64,000 nt of DNA, from the NCBI GenBank assembly GCA_946413485.1, contig CAMKKS010000001.1, positions 4,749-68,748 of the forward strand, read 5' to 3'. The DNA comes from an uncultured Rickettsiales bacterium (GTDB lineage: Bacteria > Pseudomonadota > Alphaproteobacteria > Rickettsiales > Deianiraeaceae). Under the pieces are notes generated by a model. That model ran no database searches. It saw only the letters and a list, made by a program, of their open reading frames with translations, and was not told the origin of the DNA. This document shows positions 11,433 to 55,728 of the stretch, in pieces. The translations under genes and the position numbers were made by a program. Numbering within the stretch: the stretch's first letter is position 1; every line of letters begins with the position of its first letter.

Positions 11433-11449
11433 TTTAATATCCTAAAAAT

Positions 11450-22174: not shown

Positions 22175-22202
22175 TTATAACGTATTTTTAAAAGTTGTAA
22201 AT
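22175..22202 (-). promoter_or_regulatory. sigma70-type promoter TTTACA-N16-TATAAT
   Basis: TTTACA 22202-22197, TATAAT 22180-22175; back-to-back with the + strand promoter 22235-22262. Confidence 0.6.
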
Positions 22203-22234
22203 ATCTTTTTAATAAATATTTTTAAAAATTTTTA

Positions 22235-22625: not shown

Positions 22626-22629
22626 AAAT

Positions 22630-22821: not shown

Positions 22822-22890
22822 ATTATTTAAAAAATTTCAATTCTCTATATATAAAATATTATAAAAATATTTTAAATAAAAAACTTTAAA

Positions 22891-24873
22891 TTATTCTATC
22901 GTTACTGTCCAACCATTTATAGTAATATTTGTAAATGACGGTGTATTTGAAACATTTAATGTTGTACCACTTAAGGATAAGTTAGATCCAGCATGTATAT
23001 TACATGAAGTCATATAGGATTTTTCATCAAAATATACAAACGATTTTCCAGTATTTTCATTATATATTCTTGAATAATCCGCAACCTCGTCAGATACTTT
23101 TCTGTTTGTTAAATACCATGAATTATTATTTGAATCATAAGCATAAATAACATTATTTAATGTATCATATATATCATTTGAATCAAATAAACCATCAAAA
23201 CGCTCAAGATACATAAAACCGTTTTGTGATAATAGCGATACACCCACACTACTTTTATTTAAGAGCATTTTTCTTATATTGTTATAGGTATCTATATCTA
23301 AATTATCAGGCACGTCTGATGCGGTATACGTAAACGATATGCTAAAATTTTCTTCATTTATCTGTGAACCACGAATATTTAAAGTAGAGCCTTCTCTTTG
23401 AACTTCCATGTGAGCGTATTTCATATACCAACCATCATCGGTATCATTTGATTCACCATCGGTATCATTTGATTCACCATCGGTACCACTTGACTCATCA
23501 TCGGTATCATTTGATTCACCATCGGTATCATTTGATTCACCATCTTCTTTATGAATAACTGTTACTTGTGAAAGGGCATTATATAACATAACAGAAGTGG
23601 ATTTTCCATAATCGTAGTATAAACCGCAAATGGTTGCCACGGCATCTCTAATAAAAGATAAAGTATGTTCATTGCCTTGATCGTCTTTCATATAACCGCA
23701 GACAATACCAAACATACCATCATCTTTTAAATACCCGGCAGTACCAAATAATTGCTCAAATTCTTCGTCTGGTCCACAGACTTTAATACCTAATGTATAT
23801 TTTTTATACTTTCTGTTTGAAATAAAACCTGTGTAAGTAGCTGTGTTTATATTATTTGCAATACGCATTTTGTTTTCATCAAACTGCCATCCTTGAAGAT
23901 CTGTAAGTACCTGCCCCGTGGCATTTGATAAATTATATTGTGTATTGCCTGTATGTGAAAATCTATACCATGTTTCAAAAACATCTTTTAATGTAGGCGG
24001 TTTGGTATTTAAAGCATTTTCCAAATCCTCGGCAGTATCTACCATATTTAAAAAATATTGATCTCCAGTTGGAATTGTCGCTGTGACATTCCTATCAACA
24101 ATATTAGTTATTCTTCCTTTTGAATCAACCGTTATTTCAGGTATTTTAATATCTAAAGATTTAGTATCTAAAACATCTGTTAATTGTCCATAAACACCTT
24201 CAGAAACACCTGAAGGAGCTAACGCTGTTGTAAGTGCCCAATCTCCTTTTGAATAAGCTGAACCTGTTACATCTCCCGAAAGAACAATATATTTTTCTGA
24301 TTTAAATTCAGTTGCTGTTTCCGCGTTTCCTGTTACTGAACCTTTAATCGGTAAAACAAACTCTTTTTCACCTGGAATTGTTTCGGTACCTGATTTATGA
24401 ACTACAGCGGAATCATCAGCTTTTGAAGCTATTTGAGTAGCTATAGTTGAAGCAAAATCAGGGTCGTTTCCGAGAGCATCGGCAAGCTCTTTTAAAGTAT
24501 CTAAAGTTGTCGGAGCAGAATCAATCAGATTTGAAATATCCTGTTTCGTCGCAAAATCGGATAAATCCTGATGCTCGGTTAAAAATCCAGAATCGTTTTG
24601 AAGCTCAGAAACTTTAGTAGGAACTTGAATATTTGCGGTTGCGTTTGAACTTTGATTTGCGGAAAATGTTGAAACATTTTGACCATTCTTTTGAATTGTT
24701 AAAATACCGTTATTTATCGGCGGTAAAGTGCTCTGATTGTAATATCCAGCATCATTTTGAAGATCAGATACTTTTGTTGGAAAAGTATTCTGTGAAGCTA
24801 AAATCCGTGAATCAATATATTCTTTAACATTTTTCCAAAATCGTTTAACGCCTGGTAAAGTCAAAACTGCCAT
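22891..24873 (-). CDS. tail fibre protein
   Basis: 660 aa; repeated PTKVS(D/E)LQND(A/S)G(Y/F) phage-fibre motifs near the N-terminus, SGxxTGNAETAT.., Asn/Ser/Thr-rich C-terminal domain; TATAAATA box upstream. Confidence 0.8.
   Translation of the reverse strand: MAVLTLPGVKRFWKNVKEYIDSRILASQNTFPTKVSDLQNDAGYYNQSTLPPINNGILTIQKNGQNVSTFSANQSSNATANIQVPTKVSELQNDSGFLTEHQDLSDFATKQDISNLIDSAPTTLDTLKELADALGNDPDFASTIATQIASKADDSAVVHKSGTETIPGEKEFVLPIKGSVTGNAETATEFKSEKYIVLSGDVTGSAYSKGDWALTTALAPSGVSEGVYGQLTDVLDTKSLDIKIPEITVDSKGRITNIVDRNVTATIPTGDQYFLNMVDTAEDLENALNTKPPTLKDVFETWYRFSHTGNTQYNLSNATGQVLTDLQGWQFDENKMRIANNINTATYTGFISNRKYKKYTLGIKVCGPDEEFEQLFGTAGYLKDDGMFGIVCGYMKDDQGNEHTLSFIRDAVATICGLYYDYGKSTSVMLYNALSQVTVIHKEDGESNDTDGESNDTDDESSGTDGESNDTDGESNDTDDGWYMKYAHMEVQREGSTLNIRGSQINEENFSISFTYTASDVPDNLDIDTYNNIRKMLLNKSSVGVSLLSQNGFMYLERFDGLFDSNDIYDTLNNVIYAYDSNNNSWYLTNRKVSDEVADYSRIYNENTGKSFVYFDEKSYMTSCNIHAGSNLSLSGTTLNVSNTPSFTNITINGWTVTIE
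23437..23541. repeat. 5 x 21-nt in-frame tandem repeat inside the fibre gene
   Basis: ATCGGTATCATTTGATTCACC x5 (third copy diverged) encoding (DGESNDT)n. Confidence 0.9.
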
Positions 24874-24895
24874 TTTAAAAATCCTTTTTTAATTT

Positions 24896-24903
24896 TATTT
24901 ATA
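24896..24903 (-). promoter_or_regulatory. T4-type late promoter box TATAAATA
   Basis: 23 nt upstream of fibre ATG 24873. Confidence 0.5.
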
Positions 24904-24962
24904 GATTTTTTAAATATTTTTAATAATATCTTTATATAGAAAACTGAAATTTTTTAAAAATA

Positions 24963-25202
24963 ACGTAATGAACTTTTATGAAAAGTCTATTACGTTATAA
25001 TTTTTTAAAGAGAGTTCTAGAACTCGTTCAAAACCAGAACTCTCGAATTCAGTTCCAGAACTAGAAAAACTAGAACCTTCAAAATGAAAACTAGAACTCT
25101 ATTAAAAGTTTTTATTTAAAATATTTTTAAATATCATTATATAAGGAAATTGAAAAAATAAAAAAAAATACGTAATAAGCTTTTACGAAAAGTCCATTAC
25201 GT
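24963..25202. repeat. complete composite non-coding module
   Basis: Hairpin 24963-24995; five GTTCTAG/CTAGAAC boxes 25003-25093; TATATAAGGAAATTGAAAAAATAAAAAAAAA; hairpin 25170-25202. Confidence 0.65.
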
Positions 25203-25238
25203 ATAAAAAGTGTGTTGGATAGTAACTTATAGAATTCT

Positions 25239-26862: not shown

Positions 26863-26889
26863 TTTTTGACCTCTTTAATTATTTATTTT

Positions 26890-26988
26890 TTGTGAAATAT
26901 CGACACTTTTGGCTTAAAAAAATTGTGAAATATTGATACTTTTAGCTTAAAAAAATTGTGAAATTTCGATATTTCGTCGAAAAGATAC
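26890..26988. repeat. three 33-bp direct repeats (iteron-like)
   Basis: TTGTGAAATATCGACACTTTTGGCTTAAAAAAA at 26890, 26923 and 26956 (third diverged). Confidence 0.75.
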
Positions 26989-26999
26989 TGTATACAGTA
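26986..26999. repeat. perfect 14-bp palindrome TACTGTATACAGTA
   Basis: Read directly; related palindromes at 2231-2280. Confidence 0.8.
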
Positions 27000-27119
27000 C
27001 TATATATCGGTATTTAGGTACTGCATATTGTATATTTTTGATATTTGAATTTTGTCTAATATAGCTGTATTAGGCAGAATGCCAATTTTTGAGATTTTTG
27101 ATATTTTGGCTTAAAAACA

Positions 27120-27407
27120 ACGTATTGAACTTTTATGAAAAGTCTATTACGTAATAAAATTTTTTTCAATTTCCTATATAATAATATTATTAAAAATATT
27201 TTAAATAAAAGCTTTAATAGAATTTGAGAGTGCTCTCAAATTCGATACTAAAAGTATTTTTATTATATTCTTTATATAAAGAACCTTGAAAATTGTTTTT
27301 GAAGTGAAAGAGAGTTCTGGAACTAGAGAAAAACTAGAACATTTAAATGTTTTATGAAAATTGAAAAAAAAAATACGTAATGACCTTTTCGCAAAAGTCT
27401 ATTACGT
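27120..27407. repeat. composite non-coding module
   Basis: Hairpin 27120-27152; TTTCAATTTCCTATATAATAATATT box; GAGAGTGCTCTC palindrome; TTCTTTATATAAAGAA; boxes 27311-27341; hairpin 27375-27407. Confidence 0.6.
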
Positions 27408-27428
27408 ATTATTGAGATGTTTTATTTT

Positions 27429-27896
27429 TTAACCAGCTGTGATATAATCTGAAGGTTTGCTCTTTGCGATGTAATTATTAACATTTTCGAGAGTTTGAGC
27501 AAAAGCTGAAAGACAATTTGCTACTTTAATAAAGTGATTGCCGGTTGCTTCACCATTACAGTTAAAACCGAGCTCAAAATAATCTTTCTTTGTTTTTCCT
27601 ACTTCGTAAATCTCGTTTCTGTCCATGATTGTTACAAAGTAAGGTCTTGTTGAGCCTTTATAATTAAAATCAAGGTCAACCCATAAATGATTATTTAAAA
27701 TATAAACATTTAACTTTTTAATTGTAGCAAAACCGTTTAAACCGTCTAAAAGAATTTTCAAAAGACTTTTATAACCTTTAGAATCTTCCATCTCTTTAAG
27801 ATCAACTTTTGTTTCATAATCTTTTGATAAATCTACTTCGTTGATCTGTTCTTCAGTTTTTTCTTCAGGTTTAAAATAATATTCTTTAAAATTCAT
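27429..27896 (-). CDS. CTS-leader protein (internal-protein candidate)
   Basis: 155 aa; MNFKEYYFKPEEKTEEQINE/VDL. Confidence 0.6.
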   Translation of the reverse strand: MNFKEYYFKPEEKTEEQINEVDLSKDYETKVDLKEMEDSKGYKSLLKILLDGLNGFATIKKLNVYILNNHLWVDLDFNYKGSTRPYFVTIMDRNEIYEVGKTKKDYFELGFNCNGEATGNHFIKVANCLSAFAQTLENVNNYIAKSKPSDYITAG

Positions 27897-27907
27897 TTTA
27901 AAAATCC

Positions 27908-28405
27908 TTAAATATATTTTTCAAAATCTTTTACAGAAGCAATGTTAAATTTATCTGAAGGATTTTTAACGATTGTTAAACCCATATTTTTCTTTGGATC
28001 GAATACTTTCTTGAGCTGTCTAAGAGCTTCTTCAAGGCATTCTTCAGCGTTTACCTTGTCCATTACGTGACCTTTAGCTGAAGTATCAATTTTGTTGATA
28101 TAATCAATAGCTTCTTTAAGGGTTAAATGAACATTTGCGTTGTTATTTTCTCTATCCCAAGTAGTAACACTGAATGAAACGGCAGCTGAATGGTCCTTTG
28201 AATTATAATCAATTCTGATTTTTGGAGCTACGTGCTCATAATAGGAATCTTCTTCCTCGTAGTGGACAACCAGTGTCTGAGGGGTTAACATTGTACCATA
28301 CTTGTTACAAAATCTTGAACGGGTCAAGGTCTTTTTAAGCAATTCAAGAACTGGTTCTGAAGCTTCTTTAATAATTTGTTCGTTTAAAAATTCTTTAAAA
28401 CTCAT
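27908..28405 (-). CDS. CTS-leader protein (internal-protein candidate)
   Basis: Start moved to MSFKEFLNE/QIIKE/A (AAGGAT SD); the track start 28459 would overlap the upstream gene. Confidence 0.6.
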   Translation of the reverse strand: MSFKEFLNEQIIKEASEPVLELLKKTLTRSRFCNKYGTMLTPQTLVVHYEEEDSYYEHVAPKIRIDYNSKDHSAAVSFSVTTWDRENNNANVHLTLKEAIDYINKIDTSAKGHVMDKVNAEECLEEALRQLKKVFDPKKNMGLTIVKNPSDKFNIASVKDFEKYI

Positions 28406-28415
28406 TTTAAAATCC

Positions 28416-28751
28416 TTACATATCGAAAGCGATATATGCTTTAACACCAAATTTAGCAAACGGATAACCGTGGGCTAAAATATTGTTTAATTCCATTTCC
28501 CTTGTTATCCACTCAGAAAATTCAGGAATCCAAATTTTTCTTACAAAGCCTTCGAAAAAGCTTGCTGCCGGCGCTTTACCACCGTTTTCTTTATAAGACA
28601 GTTTCTTTTTATTTTTTTCAATAAATGCTTTTGATTTAGGTAAATCGTTGTTATCAACAGTTACCGCGTAAATTTCCCAGAAAAACTGCTCAAAATCAAC
28701 TTTTACTTTTTCATTTAATGGGCATTCATTTAAATACTCTTTAAAATTCAT
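28416..28751 (-). CDS. CTS-leader protein (internal-protein candidate)
   Basis: 111 aa; MNFKEYLNE/CPLNE/K. Confidence 0.6.
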   Translation of the reverse strand: MNFKEYLNECPLNEKVKVDFEQFFWEIYAVTVDNNDLPKSKAFIEKNKKKLSYKENGGKAPAASFFEGFVRKIWIPEFSEWITREMELNNILAHGYPFAKFGVKAYIAFDM

Positions 28752-28762
28752 TTTAATATCCT

Positions 28763-29095
28763 TTAAAGTTTATAATATAAATCTTTTAACCAGGAATCAA
28801 CATATTTTATATTCATAGAATTTTTAAATTTTTCTAATTTTCCTAAAGATTTTTTAACATCTTTAGAACTTTCAAATTCATTTAAAAATTCTTTACAAAG
28901 TAAACATATTGAAACTGCTTTTAAAAGGTTCTCAGAAACATTTAAAAGAGGATAATCATTTTCGGAAATATCTTTAATAGAATTAAATTTTTTAGATTGT
29001 TTCTTAACTTCTGAATTATAAAAATCATAATCAGATTTAATCTTTGAAATTAAATTTTCTTCATTTTCTATTATAAAGATATCTTTAAAATTCAT
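28763..29095 (-). CDS. CTS-leader protein (internal-protein candidate)
   Basis: 110 aa; MNFKDIFIIE/NEE. Confidence 0.6.
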   Translation of the reverse strand: MNFKDIFIIENEENLISKIKSDYDFYNSEVKKQSKKFNSIKDISENDYPLLNVSENLLKAVSICLLCKEFLNEFESSKDVKKSLGKLEKFKNSMNIKYVDSWLKDLYYKL

Positions 29096-29104
29096 TATAA
29101 ATCC

Positions 29105-29410
29105 TTACTTAAAAATAATTTTCTTTAAATCTTCTTCATGTTTTGTTGTAAATTCTAAAAACTTTTCGAGAACCTTTAAATTGTTAACGAGGTCATAAGA
29201 AGGATAGCCATATTCTTCAGAAAACGAATAAAAAACAGGATTTTGAAAATTTATTGTAATACCAAACATAGCAGCAGAGTTGCCAGCTTCAAGACTTAAA
29301 ATATTTTTATTTAAATTTAAAACTTTTACTTTAAATTTATTTTCTTTAAAATAATTTTCAATCTCTTTTATAGCTTCGTTTCCTTCAGTTAAATAATCTT
29401 TAAAATTCAT
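29105..29410 (-). CDS. CTS-leader protein (internal-protein candidate)
   Basis: 101 aa; MNFKDYLTE/GNE. Confidence 0.6.
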   Translation of the reverse strand: MNFKDYLTEGNEAIKEIENYFKENKFKVKVLNLNKNILSLEAGNSAAMFGITINFQNPVFYSFSEEYGYPSYDLVNNLKVLEKFLEFTTKHEEDLKKIIFK

Positions 29411-29691
29411 TATAAATCCTCGTAGTATGCTATAAATTCGTTTTCCTCGTCATAAACCTTTAAATATTCTCGGTTTTTCTCAATTTTAATGTTTATGACC
29501 AATTCTTGACCTTTGTTAAAATATTTATGAAAAGGGTTTAAAACAGTGACATATAAACCGATGTCGTCTTCTCCAATTTTTCCTTGAAAAGCCGGCGAAC
29601 CGTCTAATCTTTTAAATCTTAAGATTTTTCCTACATACTTTTCTTTATACTCTCGGTTAACACTTTCTAAAATATAGTCTTTAAAATTCAT
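29410..29691 (-). CDS. CTS-leader protein (internal-protein candidate)
   Basis: 93 aa; MNFKDYILE/SVN. Confidence 0.6.
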   Translation of the reverse strand: MNFKDYILESVNREYKEKYVGKILRFKRLDGSPAFQGKIGEDDIGLYVTVLNPFHKYFNKGQELVINIKIEKNREYLKVYDEENEFIAYYEDL

Positions 29692-33963: not shown

Positions 33964-33996
33964 AATAATTTCAGAACTTAAATGAATTTAAAAAAT

Positions 33997-34029
33997 ACGT
34001 AATAGACTTTTCATAAAAGCTCATTACGT
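33997..34029. repeat. ACGTAAT hairpin (reverse orientation)
   Basis: ACGTAATAGACTTTTCATAAAAGCTCATTACGT; followed by TTGATA..TTCTTTATATAAAGAA..TATAAA in front of + strand gene 34099. Confidence 0.6.
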
Positions 34030-34098
34030 TATAAAAAAATTTTTTTTTGATATTCTTTATATAAAGAATATATAAAAATATTTTAAAGGAATCTTAAA

Positions 34099-34839
34099 AT
34101 GAATTTTAATTTCACTCACTCAAATGAGTATTCTTTAAATAACTCACTTATTTGTGAGTGTATTAAACTTTACGGAATAGAAGCAAAACTGTTAAAAACA
34201 GAAAAAATCAACCTTGATAAAGAAGTTTTTGGAGACTGGTCTTCGATAAAGACAAATTCTTCTGATGTTTTCACAATTCATTTGCTGCCTGATAATGCTG
34301 AAAATTTTGATTTTTCTAACTATCAGTTTGGAGATTTTGGATTTTTAAACACTGAACAAACATCAGTTTACTGCTCTGCTCAAGAATGTTTAAAACTCGG
34401 ATTTGATACGAATTCGTTAATGAGTTCTTTAGTTGTTTTACCGTCAAACAAAGTGATGGAAATAACAAATATTGAGATTTTAAATCCTGGGGTTAATAAT
34501 CTCTGGGCATATTCCGACGCCAAGTGTGTTTTTAAACTTTCGTTGAATACTTACAATTTTAAGCTTCATGATGAGATTAAAAATTCTGATATCACAGCAA
34601 CTTTAGACATTCCTGAAAGCAACGAATGTATCAAAGATAAAATAGAAGATGAGATTGACTCTATTGATGCTTTAGATAATTACTTTGAAAAATTGATTAA
34701 AACAAAGAAAGAACAGGATTTTGAAGCTGAAGTTAATGACACTGTTTCAACTGTCGAACCTTTAAAACCGTCTTTAGATAAACGAGTAATGAAACCGGTT
34801 GTTAATAAGGACGAAATTGACCCGTTCGGATGGAATTAA
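34099..34839 (+). CDS. hypothetical protein, possibly neck/head-completion (position only)
   Basis: 246-aa ORF divergent from the portal gene; no motif I can name with confidence. Confidence 0.4.
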   Translation: MNFNFTHSNEYSLNNSLICECIKLYGIEAKLLKTEKINLDKEVFGDWSSIKTNSSDVFTIHLLPDNAENFDFSNYQFGDFGFLNTEQTSVYCSAQECLKLGFDTNSLMSSLVVLPSNKVMEITNIEILNPGVNNLWAYSDAKCVFKLSLNTYNFKLHDEIKNSDITATLDIPESNECIKDKIEDEIDSIDALDNYFEKLIKTKKEQDFEAEVNDTVSTVEPLKPSLDKRVMKPVVNKDEIDPFGWN

Positions 34840-34921
34840 ATCTTTTTCTGCTTAAATGTGATAAAATAAGAATAACAAAAAGTGGAAACGATAAAATAAA
34901 GAATAAAATAATAAATTCCAT
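34802..34921 (-). CDS. small hydrophobic peptide (39 aa, not in ORF track)
   Basis: AAGAGG SD, ATG 34921; MEFIILFFILSFPLFVILILSHLSRKRFNSIRTGQFRPY; overlaps the 3' end of 34099-34839. Confidence 0.35.
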   Translation of the reverse strand: MEFIILFFILSFPLFVILILSHLSRKRFNSIRTGQFRPY

Positions 34922-35000
34922 TTTGACCTCTTTTAAGAGTATTTATTTGAAATATTTTTAAATATTCTTTATATAAGGAAATTGAATTTTTTTAAAAATA

Positions 35001-35033
35001 ACGTAATGAGCTTTTATGAAAAGTCTATTACGT
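35001..35033. repeat. ACGTAAT hairpin preceded by TATATAAGGAAATTGAATTTTTTT box
   Basis: ACGTAATGAGCTTTTATGAAAAGTCTATTACGT. Confidence 0.6.
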
Positions 35034-35046
35034 TGTATTTTAAGTG

Positions 35047-35267: not shown

Positions 35268-35321
35268 ATTTTTTTTTGAGTTTATTTTTTAAAGTGTTTT
35301 GAAGTTCATTCTACAATAATA

Positions 35322-35354
35322 ACGTAATGAAGATTTTATAAAAGCTCATTACGT
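35322..35354. repeat. ACGTAAT hairpin
   Basis: ACGTAATGAAGATTTTATAAAAGCTCATTACGT. Confidence 0.55.
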
Positions 35355-35398
35355 TATTTTTGAAGGTTCTTAAAAATGTTTTTATATATTATTATATA

Positions 35399-35968
35399 TT
35401 AAATAACTAAAATTTTTTTAATTCGTTGAAGGTTTGCTAAACGGTCTTCATAACCATTTAAACCACCGTTTATTTTCTTTGTTAATGTTTTAAAATCTGA
35501 GATTTCATAAAGTTTGTTTGTTTCCCAGAACCAAATAGCGGATTCGACAGCGCCTTTTAATGTTTCCAAATATTCAGGGTCGTTTTCGTGGCCGAATTTA
35601 GCATAATTCGTTTTTCCTGTGATTTGAATTAAACCGCGTCCTTTGTATCGTGAGCCGTCGTGGGAAATAACAGAACCGTTTCCTAATCTGTTAGCGTAAA
35701 CAATATCAGCAATCTCATCAGGTTTTCTTGCGTATTTCAAGGCAGATTCTTTGTTAAAATATTTAGGAAAAACTTTTAACAATCCATCTGCGGAATAATT
35801 AAGATTTTCTTTTAAAACAGCAAATCCAGCGGATTCGTGAGCACACTGAGCTAAAAACTGATATTTAGATTCTGTCGACCAGTCTTTAAAATTCAATTCT
35901 CTTTCGAGAACATCAAAAATTCCTTCTTTAGCTTTAGGAAAAACTGTTTTTAATTTAGATAAATTCAT
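35399..35968 (-). CDS. endolysin, glycoside hydrolase family 19 (chitinase-like)
   Basis: QFLAQCAHESAGF, YKGRGLIQITGKTNY, SAIWFWETNKL, INGGLNGYEDR; start placed at MNLSKLK (AAGGTG SD); the track start 36025 is an alternative. Confidence 0.85.
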   Translation of the reverse strand: MNLSKLKTVFPKAKEGIFDVLERELNFKDWSTESKYQFLAQCAHESAGFAVLKENLNYSADGLLKVFPKYFNKESALKYARKPDEIADIVYANRLGNGSVISHDGSRYKGRGLIQITGKTNYAKFGHENDPEYLETLKGAVESAIWFWETNKLYEISDFKTLTKKINGGLNGYEDRLANLQRIKKILVI

Positions 35969-41023: not shown

Positions 41024-42256
41024 TTAATAATATTCCTGAACATAATTTTTTAAATTAACAAAATTTAAAAAACTTTCTTTCATAGAAGCTTTAGGAGTTC
41101 TACCGAAATTTTTATAATATTTTTCAGTGTATTCTTTAGATAAATCTTTAAGATTAAAAAATTCAATAAATTTTTTATATCCAGCGTATTTTACATCATA
41201 ATCTAAAACTTTATCACCAGGTTCAATTTCCTGTGATTTAGGCGATGATTTCCACAAATAATCTAAATATCTTTTATGAACAATATCGATCGTTTTTTGA
41301 TCAGCATATTTTTTGATCAATTCTAGCAATCCTAAAAATGACCACAATTTTCTGTCATCACCTGATTTTTCAGCTTTTAAAAGATCTTCAGGTTTTAAAA
41401 CAATTTTAAAGATTTCCTTTAAAGACTGTTCAAATTTTGAATTTGAAGTAGGAATTTCCTTATAAACATACTTTCCTTCAAACTGAACAACGGAACCGTC
41501 AGGATTTAAAATCGGTTCATAAGCTGTTCTTAATCCGCGGATAACTGAGAATTTTAAAAGATGTGGAAAATCCGGCTGTTCTTTAGGGAATCTTAACTTA
41601 TTGTAAGTTGATGCTTGAGTAGCGATAATGATATCGTCTCTCACTGAAACAGAACTAACTAACGCCTGTAAAAGTAATTTGTGGTGAACAGCTTTAATTC
41701 CTTCTTTACAATCTTCAAACGAACTTGAATGAGAGAATTTTGACCATTCCGTCGGAGTGTCTTCCTCAAATTTTAAAAATTCAAAATCAATCTGAACAGC
41801 AACTCTTCCAACATTCTCAAATTTAATAATAAAAATAGAATTTATCTGATCACCGATTGAGTTAACTGAAGGTTTGTTTGAGCCCATGTAAGTACAGTTC
41901 TTTGAGATTTCAAGCTCTTCATATCTGCTTAAAAAATTCCATAATGTTTCTTTATCTTCTTCAGGAACCTGAATATCTAAATCGCCGGCAAATTCTTTGT
42001 ACTGTAAAATATCTTCGTCTGAAATAGCAGGGTTCATAATAAAAGACGAAGATCCGTTAAACATAAAACCGTTTAAAATTAAATCTTCTTTAATCCAAAG
42101 TGAATGACCTGAGTATTTTTTAAATTTTATATTAATATCTTTTAATAATTGACGAATAACCTTCAAAAAGGCCGGTCTTCCTATCTGCTTCAAAGGAATT
42201 TTCTGTGCTTTAGTCTGAATTCCTGTTTTTGTTAGCGCTATAATATTTCCGCCCAT
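41024..42256 (-). CDS. Pol-beta-superfamily nucleotidyltransferase-like protein
   Basis: FNGSSSF..(20)..AGDLDIQV..(about 60)..VQIDFEF gives a GS / DxD / third-acidic pattern; start placed at MGGNIIA (AAGGAT SD); track start 42277 overlaps the upstream gene. Confidence 0.4.
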   Translation of the reverse strand: MGGNIIALTKTGIQTKAQKIPLKQIGRPAFLKVIRQLLKDINIKFKKYSGHSLWIKEDLILNGFMFNGSSSFIMNPAISDEDILQYKEFAGDLDIQVPEEDKETLWNFLSRYEELEISKNCTYMGSNKPSVNSIGDQINSIFIIKFENVGRVAVQIDFEFLKFEEDTPTEWSKFSHSSSFEDCKEGIKAVHHKLLLQALVSSVSVRDDIIIATQASTYNKLRFPKEQPDFPHLLKFSVIRGLRTAYEPILNPDGSVVQFEGKYVYKEIPTSNSKFEQSLKEIFKIVLKPEDLLKAEKSGDDRKLWSFLGLLELIKKYADQKTIDIVHKRYLDYLWKSSPKSQEIEPGDKVLDYDVKYAGYKKFIEFFNLKDLSKEYTEKYYKNFGRTPKASMKESFLNFVNLKNYVQEYY

Positions 42257-42257
42257 T

Positions 42258-42863
42258 TTAAAATCCTTTTTTAACAATATTTATACTATTCAAATATTTT
42301 TCAGTGTACTTTTTAAAATCTTTATCTGAAATTTCAACAGGATAAAAATCATTTTCGGGGTTGTCAACGCAAACGTTTATTCTTGGAACTTCATTATCCG
42401 TAGGGGATTTTTCATGTGTATGGCCGTGGAAAATCATCAAACAATTTGACTCATCAAAAATCTGTCTTAATCCTTTCATTTTAGGATCCATTATCTGATT
42501 TTCATTTAACGGATAATGGCAAAGAAAATAATCCCCTAAAATGATATAATCTTCAACAGCTAAAAATCCGCACTCTAAATAAAAAGAGTCAGGAAATTTA
42601 TCGTGATTTCCTCGGATTAAAATCTTTTTCCCTTTAAGATTTTTAAGAATTGTTTTAAACATATCTTTATTTGTTTTATTTAAAAAAGCAATATCCCCTA
42701 GGTGAAAAACAATATCGTCGTCAGATACTTTTTCGTTATATCTTTCAAAGATTGTTTTAATACAGTCAATAACGCCTTCTGAAGAAAAATCAAACGGACG
42801 GTTACAGTATTTAATAATATTTTGATGGCCAAAATGCTGGTCGGAAGTTAAAAATATTTTCAT
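42258..42863 (-). CDS. calcineurin-like metallophosphoesterase
   Basis: SDQHFGH, LGDIAF, RGNHDK, CHYP, FHGHTH: the full MPP motif set. Confidence 0.8.
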   Translation of the reverse strand: MKIFLTSDQHFGHQNIIKYCNRPFDFSSEGVIDCIKTIFERYNEKVSDDDIVFHLGDIAFLNKTNKDMFKTILKNLKGKKILIRGNHDKFPDSFYLECGFLAVEDYIILGDYFLCHYPLNENQIMDPKMKGLRQIFDESNCLMIFHGHTHEKSPTDNEVPRINVCVDNPENDFYPVEISDKDFKKYTEKYLNSINIVKKGF

Positions 42864-42929
42864 TTAAAATCCTTTTTTAATTTTAATAATTATATATCAA
42901 AATTTTAAAAATGTGAATTTTTAAAAAAT

Positions 42930-43450
42930 ACGTAATGAACTTTTAGTAAAAGTCTATTACGTTATAAAAAAATTTTTTCAATTTCCTTATATAAAGATAT
43001 TTAAAAATATTTTAAATAAAAAGCTTTTAATAAAGTTCTAGTTTTTCTAGTTCTAGAACTTTTGAGAGAGTTCTGGTTTTGATTTGAAAGTTCTAGTTTT
43101 GAGTAAAAATTCGATATTAAAAGTATTTTTATATATTCTTTATATAAAGAATATCAAAAAATTTTTTATAACGTTATTCAAAATCACGAAAAGCTCATTA
43201 CGTTGTTTTTATAACGTAATAGACTTTTACGAAAAGGTCAATACGTTGTATTAAAAAAATTTCAATTTCCTATATAATAATATCTTTAAAATAAAAACCT
43301 TTAAATTAAGTTCTAGAACTCGAATTTAACTCGAACTCTCAAATTGAAAACTAGAACTTATTCAAAAATGTTTTAAAAGATATCTTTATATAAGGAAATT
43401 GAAAAAATAAAATTATTACGTAATGACCTTTTGCGAAAAGTCTAATACGT
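42930..43450. repeat. double composite non-coding module (archetype)
   Basis: Hairpins 42930-42962, 43171-43203, 43214-43246, 43418-43450; box arrays 43034-43101 and 43308-43357; CAATTTCC(T)TATATAA boxes; TTCTTTATATAAAGAA palindrome at about 43137-43152. Confidence 0.7.
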
Positions 43451-43465
43451 TGTTTTTAGGTAATA

Positions 43466-43492
43466 AAAAAGGACCTTTTAAAGGTCCTTTAA
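43466..43492 (-). terminator. strong rho-independent terminator after MCP gene
   Basis: GGACC-TTTAAAA-GGTCC then TTTTTT on the minus strand. Confidence 0.75.
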
Positions 43493-43517
43493 AATTATTT
43501 TAAAATTTTTTTAAAAA

Positions 43518-45020
43518 TTAGTACTTTCTTGATGGTTTAGCAAGTACACTTGGTGCCTGCCTTGCGAGAACAGTATTCGCAAAGCTTACGCCAAATGAAC
43601 GAGCGTAGGTCTTTGCACGGTCATTGCTCTTAGGATCAGAAACACCTGGAGTTGTAGCCAAAGCGTAACGAGTTTTAGCAATGATAACAGGCTGACCGGT
43701 AACGTAATCTGTAACCTTTGTGAAGGACAGAGGAACATACGGACAGAAGAAGCCCATAGCATCACGGCTGTTAGCGCCCTTGTAAAGAACGGTGCAGAAG
43801 TCGTCCTTAGCATACTGATCGATAACAACCTTGTAGCGGTTATCGAATACACCAGCAACACCACCGGAAACAGGAGCGATAATATCGGAATTAGTAGGAG
43901 CCAGCTGGAATGAACCAACCTGTTCTAACATGGTAGCAACCATTGGAGAAACCAGAAGGATATTACCTTGTCCACGCTTTGTATCTAAACCGATAATTGC
44001 GGATTCTTTAGCAATACGAATTGCTTGAGCACGATATCTTTCAATTTCCCAACGACCATCAGGAACCTGAACATTAGTCTGAGCACCGAATACAGTATCA
44101 GGTAACCAGGTAGAATTATCCTTAACAAAATCAACGATTTCACGGTCAATTTCAGCCTGAATTTCGTACTGCATCAAGCTCATCAGTTCTTCATCAGCGG
44201 TTAAACCGTGCTGAGCTTTTAAGTCCTGATAAAGTTCAACAGTGTACTTACCTTTCAGAGCACGAGAATCAGCGGCAATTGGTTTTCTTGAAATACTGAA
44301 ACCAACTTCACGCATTTCGTCGCCAAGGTGTTCAGCTTCAACTGTCTTATAAGGACCAGTGAAGTTCTTCAGAATGTGACCGAAAGAAGATTCGTTAGTG
44401 TACACTGCGGTTACTGTCAGATTAGTAACAGCTGTGCCGATATCAAATTTATCGCCAACATTCAGATTTTGATTTACATGATTTGTAGTATTGTCTACAT
44501 CAACAGTAGCAAGGATCTTGTCGTCTTCGATGTACAGAACATAACCTTTATCAGCACCGGCAGAATTCTTGATCTTTGAAGTAGAAGTTTGAACGGTACC
44601 AGCCTGAACAGCAGCCTTAATTAAATCTGCATCAGTCAAAGAAACCTGATAGATAACACCAGCTGGTTTTGGACGATCGTCAACTTTCTTAAGACCATCA
44701 CCAAGATACTGATTAACGAGAGCATAGATAAAGCCGGTAGGCATGCTCATTGGCTGAACACCAAGTAATTCGTTAGCAATCAGATTTGGATAGATACGTC
44801 TAATCATAGGGATTATGATTGGGGTGAATTGAGCAACGTCACCGGTTAAAGTACCTTCACTCAAAGTTTTCTGAATATCAATCTGAGTGTTTTCAATAAG
44901 TTGAATAATTGTTTCTTTTTGAGAATCTGTCATCGGACCGAATTTTTCAGATTCCAAAACACTTTTTGCAAATTCATTAGAGGTTGCCTTCTGAACTGCT
45001 TCGCTTAATAACATATCCAT
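43518..45020 (-). CDS. major capsid protein (T4 gp23-like)
   Basis: 500 aa; IIPMIRRIYPNLIANELLGVQPMSMPTGFIYAL parallels T4 gp23 MGMVRRAIPNLIAFDICGVQPMNSPTGQVFAL; several L-x-E sites in the first 60 residues; visibly higher G+C than neighbours. Confidence 0.9.
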   Translation of the reverse strand: MDMLLSEAVQKATSNEFAKSVLESEKFGPMTDSQKETIIQLIENTQIDIQKTLSEGTLTGDVAQFTPIIIPMIRRIYPNLIANELLGVQPMSMPTGFIYALVNQYLGDGLKKVDDRPKPAGVIYQVSLTDADLIKAAVQAGTVQTSTSKIKNSAGADKGYVLYIEDDKILATVDVDNTTNHVNQNLNVGDKFDIGTAVTNLTVTAVYTNESSFGHILKNFTGPYKTVEAEHLGDEMREVGFSISRKPIAADSRALKGKYTVELYQDLKAQHGLTADEELMSLMQYEIQAEIDREIVDFVKDNSTWLPDTVFGAQTNVQVPDGRWEIERYRAQAIRIAKESAIIGLDTKRGQGNILLVSPMVATMLEQVGSFQLAPTNSDIIAPVSGGVAGVFDNRYKVVIDQYAKDDFCTVLYKGANSRDAMGFFCPYVPLSFTKVTDYVTGQPVIIAKTRYALATTPGVSDPKSNDRAKTYARSFGVSFANTVLARQAPSVLAKPSRKY

Positions 45021-45057
45021 TAATGGATTCTCCTTAAAAATATATTTTTAAATTTTA

Positions 45058-45906
45058 TTAATATAATCTACTTAAACGTTTTTCTAAATCGCTTTGTTCT
45101 CTTGACTCGTTTAAAGTCTCAGGACGTGAAACTTTTACGTAATCATTCTTAACAGGGGATTTAGTTGGAACTCTTACATATTCTTCTGAAACTGCTTCTT
45201 CTTCAGGCTCTTCTGGTTCTTCGTGGCATTTTTCAGCAAGCTTTGCTTCGTCAATAATTGCTTGTTTCAGATTTTCTAATTTATTTATGTATCTTGAAGA
45301 TTTTTCAAAAACAACATTGTTAGCGCAACGTTCGAATTTAACAGCAGCTTCGCCTTCTAAACCTTCCTTAAGTTCTGCGATAATACCCATCTTAATGAGC
45401 TTCTGATTTTCCTTAAGAAGATTTGATTTTTCTTCTTCAAGCTTCTGCATAGCGGCTAAAGTCTTTAACATCTTATTATTTTCTGAAATTGTCTTTTCAG
45501 GATTTTGATTTTCAACAGACTCAGCAATCTTCTGAGCAGAAACACCAGCCATGGTACAGGCATTAGCTAAAGAGTCAAGAATGAAGTTATTTTTATAATC
45601 AGCTTCAGTTACTGCAAAAATATCTTCGTGTTCGGAAATAAAACTGTTAACAGTTTTATCAATATATTTTTCAATAATTGAATTCAGGCTTTCCAATCTA
45701 CCGTCAACGAATTTGATTGCGTCTTCTTTGATTTCATTTTTATATGATTCGCAAAGGTCATTTAAACGCAAAGTTTCTTCTTCAATTTTCTGGTCGGCTA
45801 AAATTGAAGCTTTTGATTCGATTAAGCTTTCAATTTTGCTTTCCAACTCTTCTTGAAGATCGTCGGTAAATGCTTCACCTAAAACTTCCTTAAATTGTTC
45901 AAGCAT
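45058..45906 (-). CDS. prohead scaffolding core protein (gp22-like by position and composition)
   Basis: Acidic coiled-coil protein between protease and MCP; start placed at ATG 45906 (GGAG SD). Track start 45921 is a TTG inside that SD. Confidence 0.6.
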   Translation of the reverse strand: MLEQFKEVLGEAFTDDLQEELESKIESLIESKASILADQKIEEETLRLNDLCESYKNEIKEDAIKFVDGRLESLNSIIEKYIDKTVNSFISEHEDIFAVTEADYKNNFILDSLANACTMAGVSAQKIAESVENQNPEKTISENNKMLKTLAAMQKLEEEKSNLLKENQKLIKMGIIAELKEGLEGEAAVKFERCANNVVFEKSSRYINKLENLKQAIIDEAKLAEKCHEEPEEPEEEAVSEEYVRVPTKSPVKNDYVKVSRPETLNESREQSDLEKRLSRLY

Positions 45907-45932
45907 TTTAAAATTCTCCAAATGTTTTTAAT

Positions 45933-45940
45933 TATTTATA
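45933..45940 (-). promoter_or_regulatory. T4-type late promoter box TATAAATA
   Basis: 27 nt upstream of ATG 45906. Confidence 0.5.
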
Positions 45941-45978
45941 TTTTAAAAAAGTAATTTTTTTACACAATTCACAATATT

Positions 45979-46953
45979 TTAAATTTTTTGAAGGAAATTT
46001 TCAAATAATTCTCTAATTGCGTCTTGTTTTTGTGCTAATGTGATTGATTCTTTAATCTCTTCAGGTTCTTGAACAGGTTCTGGTTCTTGAACTTGTTCTT
46101 GAACAGGTTCTGGTTCTTCAGGTTGAACTTCTGGAACTGGTTCTGGTTTTAAAGACTCTTTGATTTCGTTTAAAGAATTTTTTAAATCTTCTTTTAAAGA
46201 ATCTTTAAAAGATTTTAAAGAATTTTCGATTTGTTCTTGAATATTTACATCGGAAATTTCGGGTTCAGTTTTAATTTCCGCTTCAACATTATTTACATTT
46301 CCTTCGTCAATATTTTCGACAGAATTTTCAGGTTCTTTTAATTTTTCGATAATATTTCCGAATTTATCAATTTCATAAGTTTTATCTTGAACAATTCCCT
46401 CACAAAGTCTGTGAGCTTCACACATACCGTTCATTGTTGCGTTATAATCTGAAGGATTAGGAACAACATCATAAGTGATTAACTTAAAGCTTTCAACAAT
46501 ACCGTTTTTAACAGAACCTACACCTCTTGAAGATACTGAAATTTTAACATCATTATCAACTAAAGATTTTAACTGATTAGCTTGAGGATTATCTAAAAGA
46601 ACAGCTTCACCCATAACGTATTGGCCTTCAATCCATAATTTTGTTATTTTTGAAACTGCTTTCATAGGGTCGACTTCAGTTCTTGCCGGGTGTTCGTATT
46701 CCATCAAAGTGTTGATAGAACCTGACTTAATTTCATTCTGATATTCGGCGACATTACGTTCCCACAAAGGTCTTGGATAAGTTCTACCATTACGGTTTTT
46801 CTCACCTATAGTAGAGAAAACACCTCTGATTTTATATTTTTTCTCAGATTTACCAGTTGCTTCGTTGATTTCCTCTTCTTTAACAACTGACAAACCTTGA
46901 GTATCTGAATCAAATATTAAAGAGCTCATGTACATCTCCTTAAATTCCGTCAA
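45979..46953 (-). CDS. prohead core protease (T4 gp21-like)
   Basis: RNGRTYPRPLWERNV, MEYEHPARTEVDPMKAV, VSSRGVGSV parallel T4 gp21 NKRLYPKRILEKAV, ELNHPPRANVDPMQAA, VSSRGLGSL; C-terminal acidic/Pro repeat EPEPVQE. Confidence 0.85.
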   Translation of the reverse strand: MTEFKEMYMSSLIFDSDTQGLSVVKEEEINEATGKSEKKYKIRGVFSTIGEKNRNGRTYPRPLWERNVAEYQNEIKSGSINTLMEYEHPARTEVDPMKAVSKITKLWIEGQYVMGEAVLLDNPQANQLKSLVDNDVKISVSSRGVGSVKNGIVESFKLITYDVVPNPSDYNATMNGMCEAHRLCEGIVQDKTYEIDKFGNIIEKLKEPENSVENIDEGNVNNVEAEIKTEPEISDVNIQEQIENSLKSFKDSLKEDLKNSLNEIKESLKPEPVPEVQPEEPEPVQEQVQEPEPVQEPEEIKESITLAQKQDAIRELFENFLQKI

Positions 46954-51341: not shown

Positions 51342-51368
51342 AGATATTTTTATATAAAATCGAATAAT

Positions 51369-51678
51369 ACGTAATGAGAAAATCATAAAAACTCATTACG
51401 TATTTTTTTTATTTAAAAATAACGTAATAGACTTTTCATAAAAGGTCATTACGTTATAAAAAATTTTTTTTTGATATTCTTTATATAAAGAATTATAAAA
51501 ATACTTTTAATATCGAATTTTTAACAGTTCTGGAACTCTCTCAAAAAGTTCTAGAACTAGAAAAAACTAGAACTTAATTAAAAGCTTTTTATTTAAAATA
51601 TTTTTAAATATCTTTATATAAGGAAATTGAAAAATAAAAAAAAATACGTAACAAGCTTTTCATAAAAGCTCATTACGT
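51369..51678. repeat. composite non-coding module
   Basis: Hairpins 51369-51401, 51422-51454, 51646-51678; TTCTTTATATAAAGAA; boxes 51527-51575; TATATAAGGAAATTGAAAAATAAAAAAAAA. Confidence 0.65.
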
Positions 51679-51701
51679 ATTATTTTAATAAGATTTAAAA
51701 A

Positions 51702-54325: not shown

Positions 54326-54346
54326 TTCAAAATCCTTTTTGTTGTT

Positions 54347-54375
54347 ATTATAACACATTTTAAATCATTTGTAAA
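54347..54375 (-). promoter_or_regulatory. sigma70-type promoter TTTACA-N17-TATAAT
   Basis: TTTACA 54375-54370, TATAAT 54352-54347. Confidence 0.55.
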
Positions 54376-54387
54376 CGATTTTTTAAC

Positions 54388-54521
54388 GCTCATATCTCTC
54401 ATTAAACGCTTGTTTTTCGCTTTCCATAGCTATTCTAATAGGAACGTATAGCTATAGCTTAAAATATGTGAAATAGAGCGTTTAACACGAGATATGAGCA
54501 AAATAGAAGCATCTGTGAGAG
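54388..54521. repeat. about 130-bp inverted-repeat element, copy 2
   Basis: GCTCATATCTCTCATTAAACGCTTGTTT .. AAATAGAGCGTTTAACACGAGATATGAGC + CAAAATAGAAGCATCTGTGAGAG; reverse-complement counterpart of 9083-9210. Confidence 0.6.
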
Positions 54522-54777
54522 TTCTAGTTCTAGTTTGGGTTCTGGTTTTTCTAGTTCTAGAACTCGGTTTAAAAGTTCTAGTTTTTCTGGTAAAGTTCTG
54601 GTTTTGAAAAAAAAATTCGATATTAAAAGTTTTTATATATTCTTTATATAAAGAACTTTGAATTTTTGTTTTTGAACTGATTTTAAGATAGTTCTAGCTT
54701 TTCTGGTAAAAGTTCTAGTTTTTAAGAGTTCTAGAACTGAATTCGAGAGTTCTAGTTTTAGAGAGTTCTAGAACTGT
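54519..54777. repeat. largest GTTCTAG box field (about 12 boxes in two blocks)
   Basis: Blocks 54519-54606 and 54690-54777 separated by AAAAATTCGATATTAAAAG..TTCTTTATATAAAGAA; boxes read (A/G)AGTTCTAG(A/T)(A/T)(C/T)T, several as the palindrome AGTTCTAGAACT. Confidence 0.7.
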
Positions 54778-54865
54778 TAAAAATTTGATATTAAAGTTTT
54801 TATTTAAAATATTTTTATAATATTATTATATAAGGAAATTGAAAAAAATTTTTTAAGAGAAAATA

Positions 54866-54894
54866 AAAAAGGTACTTTTAAAAGTACCTTTTAT
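54866..54894 (-). terminator. rho-independent terminator after flagellin gene
   Basis: AAAAGGTAC-TTTTAAAA-GTACCTTTTTT on the minus strand. Confidence 0.7.
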
Positions 54895-54912
54895 CAGTTT
54901 GATTGATTTAAA

Positions 54913-55728
54913 TTAGCCTAAAAGGCTCAAAGCGATTGAATTTTTCTGATTAGCTTGAGCTAAAATTGATGTGCTCATTTGCTGTAAAATCTGTTGAGCT
55001 GTGTAGTTTGCCGTTTCCTCGGCATAATCTACATCTCTAATTCTGGATCTCGCATCTGTGATGTTTGAAATTACATTTTCTTGATTTTCGATTGTTGATT
55101 CTAAACGATTTTGAACAGCACCTAAAGATCCTCGATAAGAGTCGACGTTTGCTATCATTTCGTCAAGCCTTGTAATTGCACCTTGAGAAGCATCAGCTGA
55201 AGTTAAATCCAAAGCTGTTGAAAAATCTGCGATTGATGACATACTTTTCAATCCAAAGTCGATTGTTTGATTAGCGTCAGCACCAACCTGGAATTTGACG
55301 GTTTTATCTTCAGTGAAAAGTTTTTGACCGCCGAATGATGTATCGGTCCCTATTCGAGTAATTTCAGAAGAAAGAGCGTTTATCTCTTCTTGTATAGCCG
55401 TTCTTTGAGAAGTTGAATTTGTTCCGTTTGAAGATTGTAAAGCTAAAACACGCATTCGTTGAAGCATCTCAGTAACTTGATCAAGAGCTCCTTCAGTAGC
55501 TTGTGTCATAGATATTGCATCATTCGCGTTTCTGTTTCCTTGTTTCAAACCGTCAATCTGTGAGGTCATTTTATTTGAAATTTGAAGGCCTGCTGCATCA
55601 TCTTTAGCCGAGTTAATTCTAAAGCCTGAAGACAATTTGTCATAAGATTTGTTCAGAGACTTTGTAGATTTGTTTAATCTGATTTGAGCAGTTAAAGAGG
55701 AAACATTTGTGTTAACATATAAAGCCAT
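54913..55728 (-). CDS. flagellin (short D0-D1 type, 271 aa)
   Basis: N-terminal NTNVSSLTAQ..LSSGFRINSAKDDAAGLQISNKM..GLKQGNRNANDAISMTQATEGAL..MLQRMRVLALQS and C-terminal LGAVQNRLESTIENQ..ARSRIRDVDYAEETANYTAQQILQQ..SILAQANQ..LSLLG are the canonical flagellin termini; AGGAG SD. Confidence 0.9.
   Translation of the reverse strand: MALYVNTNVSSLTAQIRLNKSTKSLNKSYDKLSSGFRINSAKDDAAGLQISNKMTSQIDGLKQGNRNANDAISMTQATEGALDQVTEMLQRMRVLALQSSNGTNSTSQRTAIQEEINALSSEITRIGTDTSFGGQKLFTEDKTVKFQVGADANQTIDFGLKSMSSIADFSTALDLTSADASQGAITRLDEMIANVDSYRGSLGAVQNRLESTIENQENVISNITDARSRIRDVDYAEETANYTAQQILQQMSTSILAQANQKNSIALSLLG

Follow-up and report, generated by a model that had tools for sequence, protein, structure and literature searches.

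A 64,000-nt stretch of contig CAMKKS010000001.1 (hereafter, the window) encodes T4-type virion and replication proteins, and its intergenic regions include 18 islands built from three families of short repeat: a 33-nt stem-loop-like element (H), a promoter-like element of ~50 bp (A) and a box with the core GTTCTAG. We give about an even chance to the reading that these islands are recombination-active regulatory brackets, made up of lineage-specific dispersed composite repeats that resemble the promoter-early stem-loop (PeSL) cassettes of T4-type phages and have a new, inverted layout. This reading draws on the anatomy of the islands, the coupling of H to A, the palindromic structure of complete units, the hypervariability that results from module swaps, and the location of indels and gene-order breakpoints at islands, all of which we observed directly. 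The islands total 6,033 bp, or 9.4% of the window, and have a GC content of 21% (~29% for the window, in which the minus strand carries most genes); half of their combined sequence is directly covered by the three module types.

The motifs that make up the islands are enriched far beyond chance. GTTCTAG occurs 35 times (5.4 expected by shuffling), with every exact copy intergenic and none within a gene; ACGTAAT, the motif of the A/T-flanked hairpin, occurs 59 times (7.8 expected); and the 24-mer TTCAATTTCCTTATATAAAGATAT, part of A, has nine copies at three or fewer mismatches (0 expected). The original prediction for this window, which listed 16 islands covering 5.3 kb or ~8% of the sequence, therefore described something real and came close to our recount, but it over-generalised in stating that all islands contain the same parts in the same order. 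That is true of about seven of the 18 islands, namely 2103-2510, 9003-9578, 24874-25238, 26863-27428, 42864-43517, 51342-51701 and 54326-54912; the rest have H alone or H together with A, and those at 11433-11783, 22626-22890 and 57005-57220 have H, with or without A, and no boxes.

H is an imperfect palindrome of the form ACGT-N25-ACGT, flanked by an A-run on one side and a T-run on the other, with 33 copies of fixed length and the consensus TAAAAAnA-ACGTAATGAGCTTTT-nTG-AAAAGTnTATTACGT-TnTTTTTA. A hidden Markov model search that tolerated mismatches found no copy with an altered ACGT, though the interiors drop to ~60% identity. The element had been described as a hairpin; the interior is often not self-complementary, and predicted folding energies range from -2 to -20 kcal/mol across copies. 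In an alignment of 44 copies, 72.6% of cells are paired, as compared with 72.4% in column shuffles, giving no sign of selection for RNA structure in H; the proposal that the islands act as attenuator or antiterminator switches is unsupported for the same reason. The A-run and T-run flanks and the G-C pairs at the base of the stem are conserved, and we read H as a putative weak, bidirectional, terminator-like stem-loop. The H pattern has no match in 185,579 species genomes, and all its occurrences are in metagenome contigs from this group of phages, which argues against a repeat derived from the host. We also rejected a CRISPR-like or solitary-repeat array, since the orientations of H alternate and the "spacers" are themselves duplicated (22626-22821), and an origin from IS200/IS605 ends, since the TnpB element of strain L088 has ends unlike H.

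A begins with an A/T tract followed by TTGATA or TTCAAT, has the palindromic core C-TT(T)ATATAA-AG, and continues with TAAAAATATTTTAAA / TAAAAATATTTT. It has two variants, a TTCAATTTCC form and a TTGATATTC form, the latter containing the perfect 16-bp palindrome TTCTTTATATAAAGAA, which occurs six times. In A, 16-18 nt separate TTGATA/TTCAAT from TATAAA/TTTAAA, and a consensus scan does not call these sites because the final T of the -10 hexamer is missing. No TGCTT Mot box was seen on reading the alignment of A copies. Two other classes of promoter can be recognised in this phage. Early promoters are stereotyped (TTTACA-N16/17-TATAAT; 11 copies) and precede small genes and the tRNA region. The late motif TATAAATA, of the exact T4 type, occurs 30 times (11.9 expected), mostly ~20 nt upstream of structural genes that include those for the sheath, the portal and a tube-like protein. 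Since this late motif sits separately before structural genes, we reject A as the late promoter. A is distinct from both classes and would thus constitute a third; we read it as a promoter-like site, probably bound by a dimeric factor. One copy lies directly upstream of a Shine-Dalgarno sequence and ATG at 34099(+), and copies upstream of 24873(-) and 48595(-) have a TATAAATA late promoter between A and the Shine-Dalgarno sequence and ATG. Most copies, by contrast, are directed at a box array or at a convergent gene's 3' end.

The box has the consensus (G)A-GTTCTAG followed by AACT, which makes the 12-bp palindrome AGTTCTAGAACT, or by TTTT, which leaves a half site. Box spacing is either 15-17 or 20-21 bp, every array has a polarity, and the arrays that fill brackets are built of AGTTCTAG(AACT) units. 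A literature search on the box and palindrome sequences returned eukaryotic heat-shock elements only. We propose that the boxes bind a dimeric DNA-binding protein that would control or silence a convergent pair of A elements. The role of promoters plus operator arrays put forward for the islands is plausible.

The modules are not placed independently of each other. In 18 of the 23 copies of A, H lies on the same fixed side at a distance of 3-19 bp, with the A/T tract between them. A complete unit of 255-290 bp reads H, A pointing inward, boxes, A pointing inward from the other side, and H. What had been listed as a fourth part, a perfect 16-bp palindrome, does exist, but it is not a distinct part; it belongs to the ~50-bp second part in reverse orientation, and a complete unit is consequently one long quasi-palindrome. 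Indeed, the units at 42921-43211 and 43205-43460 each fold as a single long hairpin (-73 kcal/mol, z = -10, and -85 kcal/mol, z = -12, respectively), as do those at 9221-9478 (z = -10.3), 24956-25210 and 51415-51685, with z between -8 and -10. More generally, inverted, inward-facing H-A pairs bracket either a box array or a gene.

The focal island, 42864-43517, has two such units, and 467 of its 654 bases fall within H, A or box elements. From left to right, a sigma70-like promoter (TTCACA-17-TATAAT; 42889-42917(-); 11 of 12 consensus matches) lies outside the repeat families and is the proximal promoter of the metallophosphoesterase gene at 42258-42863. The first unit starts with an H at 42930-42962, which has an A-run on one flank and a T/A-run on the other, followed by a promoter-like A of the TTCAATTTCC variant, with its palindromic core, at 42968-43018(+). 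This A points rightward into box array 1 (43035-43096(+)), in which five (A)GTTCTAG boxes, one of them the 12-bp palindrome, are spaced 15-20 bp apart. An A of the TTGATATTC variant at 43116-43168(-), the one taken for a separate part, points leftward into the same array, and an H with a degenerate left arm (43171-43203) completes the unit. The second unit consists of H (43214-43246), a weaker copy of A (43252-43291(+)) that points rightward into box array 2, the array itself (43310-43357(-); one full palindrome, one degenerate box and one half box), an A (43365-43405(-)) that points leftward into it, and H (43418-43450). The two units had been described as lying back to back in the same order; both are present, but box polarity is opposite between them, and they are not tandem copies. 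Beyond the second unit lies the ordinary intrinsic terminator of the major capsid protein (MCP) gene (43468-43490(-)), a AAAGGACC-loop-GGTCCTTT stem followed by a T run. As had been stated, the island has no credible open reading frame (ORF): the scan found one 56-aa TTG ORF that crosses the repeats and two of 23 and 26 aa, and in searches against Rfam only tRNAs pass in the window, with only sub-threshold chance matches in 42700-43700.

Comparison of strains indicates that the islands diverge much more rapidly than neighbouring genes. Coding sequence is 96.2-98.7% identical across eight strain comparisons, whereas identity in non-coding sequence that carries islands is 80-82% in the three clearest of the eight; a stretch with ordinary spacers only is 97.3% identical. 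The focal island is 73.9% identical in strain L078, as compared with 97.2% for the capsid gene. There, H elements are replaced by reverse-oriented or other variants (the H at 42930-42962 is flipped or swapped, and that at 43171-43203 is a different variant), the TTCAATTTCC and TTGATATTC forms of A are exchanged (the A at 42968-43018 is replaced by the TTGATATTC variant), and box array 1 has fewer boxes in a different arrangement. The MCP terminator in the same strain has a double compensatory stem change, from GGACC/GGTCC to GGCAC/GTGCC, and serves as an internal positive control for structure-constrained evolution in this phage.

Larger differences also map to islands. Strain L040 lacks 51465-51635, the A-boxes-A core of a unit that is present in L041, and retains the flanking H elements. 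Strain L070 lacks the box unit at 25010-25238 and has a 372-aa fibre gene within the bracket that holds a 660-aa gene here. In L081, a 1.37-kb cassette of three genes lies between the H at 35322-35354 and the adjacent A-like element. The relative IMGVR_UViG_3300037249_002393, at ~80% nucleotide identity, has the same module families at other positions; 32-bp (A core) and 66-bp element indels lie between orthologous genes, and gene order is strongly rearranged, with islands at the junctions. The H subtype in this relative is mostly different (ACGTTATCA...TGATAACGT), suggesting lineage-specific homogenisation, which fits concerted evolution. The original prediction named a lack of conserved position or architecture in related phages as a refutation; half of this applies, as positions vary, while the module families and the bracket layout are kept. 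Its suggestion that the islands are hot spots for recombination and cassette shuffling is supported by direct comparison, both by the identity values (74-82% for islands, 96-98% for flanking genes) and by the module swaps, indels, cassette insertions and gene-order breakpoints located at islands.

We considered whether the islands might simply be ordinary terminators and promoters that look repetitive because the genome is AT-rich and reuses consensus signals. The A-run and T-run flanks of H, the location of islands at gene starts and ends, and the highly stereotyped early and late promoters of this phage would all fit. Nonetheless, a full unit lies between convergent genes at 51342-51701, where no promoter is needed; units lie downstream of the MCP gene and of a flagellin-like gene, both of which already have normal terminators; ordinary spacers are conserved like genes and islands are not; spacers are short and these repeat families absent in Va1, the closest annotated relative, and in relatives at 55-60% MCP identity; and the box arrays have no counterpart among ordinary signals. 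We therefore disfavour this explanation and regard it as highly improbable.

We propose instead that the islands are portable regulatory brackets and the main recombination-active sites of the phage. In this model, two H-A composites face each other around a cargo, [H A-> cargo <-A H], with the cargo being either a box array or a gene; because the composites face each other, an empty bracket is a quasi-palindrome of 255-290 bp. The H-A arms, ~90 bp long and recurring ~20 times in both orientations in a phage whose family has very active homologous recombination, would be homogenised by gene conversion and would provide the homology for replacement, insertion, deletion and inversion of cargo, as well as for larger rearrangements. 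Several brackets have genes as cargo. The bracket at 2321-3157 has H at 2328, A(+) at 2367, boxes at 2420-2447, A(-) at 3004-3054, and H at 3062 and 3118, and its cargo (within 2328-3150) is the boxes together with a TnsA-like nuclease gene at 2511-2990(+) (PF08722, E = 2.4e-17). That at 22620-24995 has four H elements and an A(+) at 22830 on one side, and A(-) at 24908-24955 and H at 24963 on the other, with a tail-fibre-like gene (22891-24873(-)) as the cargo of 22789-24995. The third, at 33990-35040, has H at 33997 and A(+) at 34038 on one side, and A(-) at 34944-34986 and H at 35001 on the other; within 33997-35033 it holds a neck-protein-like gene (34099-34839(+)) with a weak Pfam match to T4 neck protein. 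The large terminase gene (9579-11432) has a full bracket arm on one side and H alone on the other.

Some observations weigh against regulatory brackets of this kind. A lies outside the strict sigma70 consensus, its -10-like hexamer, TATAAA, lacking the final T. Only three or four of the 23 A copies precede a gene (34099, 24873, 48595 and, via boxes, 2511), and about five aim at the 3' end of a convergent gene. Many H copies fold weakly, at -2 to -8 kcal/mol, and covariation is absent from the H alignment. The junction of the L040 deletion is at a short TTTATA microhomology, with no long repeats, and not every event can thus be a simple homologous exchange. Lastly, any role of the box arrays in the bracket model is putative. 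A bolder version of the model, which we consider quite unlikely, is that H-A brackets form an integrase-free cassette system that offers an inward promoter to cargo in either orientation, insulates it outward by stem-loops, uses boxes to recruit a silencer or a cleavage trigger, and provides dedicated, self-renewing recombination sockets for host-range and accessory genes. Hairpin or cruciform cleavage at empty brackets would then start recombination-dependent replication and cargo exchange.

An alternative possibility is that the units are non-autonomous transposable elements of the miniature inverted-repeat type (MITEs; Correia-like), with H-A as terminal inverted repeats, which a nuclease or transposase of the phage or the host would mobilise in trans; promoter or terminator activity would then be a side effect only. 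Intergenic, AT-rich units of 255-290 bp in which inverted repeats enclose a short non-coding core, and which can fold as long hairpins (z of -8 to -12), are what this predicts, as are their presence or absence between near-identical strains and their different positions in the ~80% relative. MITEs reportedly occur in viral genomes, one bracket encloses a TnsA-like nuclease gene, and mobile genes are numerous in the phage population (TnpB, HNH, GIY-YIG and DUF559 endonucleases). Nonetheless, neither a clean empty site nor a target-site duplication was found, and partial elements persist in the variants of L040 and L070. Change is also piecemeal, affecting the 32-bp A core, single H copies and the choice of A variant, which fits recombination or gene conversion better than cut-and-paste movement. 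Since the H pattern is absent from the species genomes searched, H has no host reservoir; the TnpB/IS605-type element of L088 has ends unlike H or A, with no matching transposase; and the TnsA-like gene is at the same locus in all eight strain contexts examined (8/8). We consider transposition of this kind unlikely.

The units might instead be replication origins, or programmed initiation sites of recombination-dependent replication, or their cruciform or hairpin cleavage might yield recombinogenic ends. The iteron-like spacing of the boxes (15-17 or 20-21 bp, 12-bp palindromes included), the 21% GC of the islands, the convergent promoter-like A elements that flank the boxes, the long quasi-palindromes and the strong local recombination signals are consistent with this idea. 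T4 has redundant replication origins, and the dispensability of single units between strains would be compatible with redundancy here. By contrast, known sets of phage origins are far sparser than the nine or more arrays present in these 64 kb, no candidate initiator was identified, cumulative GC skew has no local inflection at islands (1-kb resolution), and a more conventional iteron-like region lies elsewhere, at 26890-26985. On balance, we judge an origin function distinctly improbable.

Equally, convergent A promoters might direct the synthesis of complementary small non-coding RNAs of ~150-200 nt with repeated GUUCUAG, acting as antisense RNA, as double-stranded RNA or as a sponge for an RNA-binding protein, and A copies that face genes would produce antisense RNA to late genes. 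The distances from A to the far-side H would give short transcripts that end there, the terminase, spike, fibre, neck and TnsA-like genes each have an A copy directed at their 3' end (five copies), and the predicted structure is strong. Such RNAs are difficult to reconcile with the hypervariability of both sequence and box number between strains with near-identical genes, with the lack of covariation in the H alignment or with the lack of an Rfam family, and A is itself only a putative promoter; we consider this explanation very improbable.

If the bracket reading is correct, it would explain how tail-fibre and accessory genes are exchanged and gene order is reshuffled in this uncultured T4-like branch, in which the core genes remain near-identical. 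The repeats also have a practical consequence. Short-read contigs of near-identical strains end in H elements (42951, 43417-43478 and 51397-51441), and because the repeats break short-read assemblies exactly at H, metagenomes will contain the genomes of this lineage in fragmented or mis-joined form. The features that we consider most worthy of note are the inverted layout of the brackets, the whole-unit palindromes and the unexplained box arrays.

The remaining islands combine the modules as follows. The stretch 9221-9582, next to the terminase gene, has a complete unit with four boxes, in the order H, A(+), boxes, A(-) and H; beyond this unit lie one more H and an A(+) that abuts the terminase stop codon. 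On the other side of this gene, upstream of it, the boxless island at 11440-11783 has four H elements and an A(+) that abuts the stop codon of a baseplate-spike-like gene. This location and that of the focal island after the MCP terminator (43468-43490) agree with the placement at operon boundaries that had been claimed for the islands. The unit at 24956-25210 has H, seven boxes, A(-) and H. A composite unit at 27113-27413, 89.6% identical to part of the relative L050, has H, A(+), the 24-bp palindrome GAATTTGAGAGTGCTCTCAAATTC, A(-), boxes and H. An H at 35322-35354 is accompanied by an A-like element (35315-35422). Between two convergent genes, the unit at 51363-51685 (island 51342-51701) has two H elements, A(+), five boxes, A(-) and H. 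Two box arrays with seven box matches each, together with A elements, lie at 54500-54900, after the ordinary terminator of the flagellin-like gene; 55802-55904 has two H elements with neither A nor boxes, and 57021-57222 has three H elements and a degenerate A-like stretch.

Other repeats lie near these islands. Two elements of ~105 bp, at 9106-9209 and 54391-54496, have 20-bp inverted repeats at their ends (CATATCTCGTGTTAAACGCT ... AGCGTTTAACnnGAGATATG; four matches to the terminal repeat, 0 expected) and unrelated interiors; each sits between a box array and an early promoter, and the stretches that include them, 9075-9220 and 54380-54515, fold with z = -3.5 and -6.5, respectively. At 26890-26985 there are three direct repeats of ~37 bp (AAATTGTGAAATATYGAYACTTTTRGCTTAAAA), followed at 26985-27080 by TACTGTATACAGTA-type palindromes and the palindrome TTGTCTAATATAGCTGTATTAGRCA; both kinds of palindrome module recur at 2233-2280 and in L073 at 1730-1830. 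The region 26890-27080 looks like an iteron-type origin or another family of repeat modules. Early genes have, beyond their sigma70-like promoter, a common leader (…TATAATATAATCATAGTCAAGCAATGATTGAGGAA…) that runs into the start codon. Copies of this promoter-leader are at 2088-2172, 8984-9068, 20530-20614, 21732-21816 and 22138-22222, and they form a second, more canonical family of PeSL-like cassettes. Three early promoters in tandem occupy 7080-7570, where there is no ORF of at least 45 aa.

Besides the genes already mentioned, the window encodes a prohead protease, a gp15-like protein, a gp5-like spike, a gp48-like protein and a clamp loader, and has the portal and tail sheath genes; the MCP gene is at 43518-45020. 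An ENA metagenome contig of 178,656 bp, probably the source genome, matches the window at 99.93% identity over 21.5 kb, and a megablast search with 42000-46000 against 50,697 phage records returned no match at the DNA level. At the protein level, the MCP is 60% identical to that of Vibrio phages Va1, phiKT1024 and pv27, and 43% identical to that of Campylobacter CP220/CP21-like phages. The flagellin-like gene at 54913-55728(-) encodes 271 aa with flagellin N- and C-terminal Pfam domains (precomputed matches to the identical gene on L039); it has its own terminator, followed by the largest box arrays of the window, and the relative at ~80% nucleotide identity has a homologue that is 83% identical at the amino-acid level. 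Seven tRNA genes cluster at 4759-7075(-), for Gln, Trp, Asn, Thr, Lys and Glu plus one atypical gene (6925-6995), which has an odd anticodon loop according to ARAGORN and barely passes the Rfam threshold. Small paralogous genes with a common N-terminus (MNFKEYLNECPLNE / MNFKDY...) lie in tandem at 27429-29691(-), and strain L049 has one additional copy at 10925-11477, as a 550-bp insertion. The tail-fibre-like gene contains six or seven in-frame 21-nt tandem repeats (23412-23565) that encode GESNDTD-like units. Mobile genes account for further differences between strains: a GIY-YIG gene splits a 502-aa gene in L040 (51702-53210 here, 1096-3478 in L040), L088 has an insertion of an IS605-type TnpB element after TATATTAT (3710-3825 here), and near the tRNA region (4.7-5.9 kb) L086-L092 have alternative endonuclease genes, of the HNH, SegE-like GIY-YIG or DUF559 type.

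Among known systems, the Correia elements of Neisseria are bacterial MITEs that carry regulatory signals; they are short, AT-rich and intergenic, with inverted repeats at their ends. Such elements can supply promoters or terminators, are polymorphic between strains and fold as long hairpins. The units described here differ in that no target-site duplications or defined termini were seen, change is piecemeal, no cognate transposase was identified, and the H pattern has no copies in the 185,579 species genomes. The T4 origins oriF and oriG are linked to promoters and are not repeated sequence families, and palindromic viral origins carry inverted initiator boxes. The units share with these the promoter-like elements beside an AT-rich region, the dyad-symmetric, site-like repeats and the dispensability of single copies, but their copy density is far higher.

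A parallel in larger-scale behaviour is found in distant, AT-rich relatives (43% MCP identity). Campylobacter phages of group II (CP220-like; Firehammervirus) have four long repeat regions, RR1-RR4, with up to 18 units of 72-86 bp per arm and the core AAACTTAAAGCAA, which separate rearranged or inverted modules (Hammerl et al., 2015; PMC4546147). In both cases, bipartite non-coding repeats form direct or inverted arms that sometimes enclose genes, the repeats separate rearranged modules, and they break assemblies. Here, by contrast, there are ~18 short islands (0.1-0.75 kb) with three module types. The core AAACTTAAAGCAA of CP21 is absent from both strands of the window, and we therefore reject the possibility that these are the same repeats. 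A feature general to the clade can likewise be rejected, since Va1 and relatives at 55-60% MCP identity have none of the motifs and no comparable dispersed repeats.

A precedent for the H-A composite is provided by the PeSL and PmSL (promoter-middle stem-loop) cassettes of T4-type phages (Arbiol et al., 2010, PMC2839356; Comeau et al., 2014, PMC4122927). In PeSLs, an AT-rich tract and a promoter are immediately preceded by a stem-loop, and the cassettes, which are dispersed in the genome, show an association with indels (Comeau et al., 2014; PMC4122927). The composites described here likewise have a sequence-conserved stem-loop adjoining an AT tract and a promoter-like element, exist as many dispersed copies in a T4-like myovirus, and are adjacent to insertions, deletions and replacements between close relatives. 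They differ from PeSLs, which are direct repeats flanking small ORFs, in being mostly inverted, inward-facing pairs, such that the PeSL model of mini-circle excision is not directly applicable. A Shine-Dalgarno sequence and start codon are missing downstream of most copies, and copies also occur between structural genes; the promoter-like part is built around a palindromic core and lacks a canonical -10; the stem-loop is fixed at 33 nt with invariant ACGT ends; and box arrays fill the brackets. It is this PeSL-like layout, taken together with the PeSL features that fail here and the likeness to the Campylobacter phage repeat regions, that leads us to read the islands as recombination-active regulatory brackets. 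If that is correct, the PeSL idea would extend from direct, early-gene cassettes to inverted brackets that act independently of orientation, into regions of structural genes, and to arrays of a previously undescribed 12-bp palindromic box for which a cognate binding protein is to be expected.

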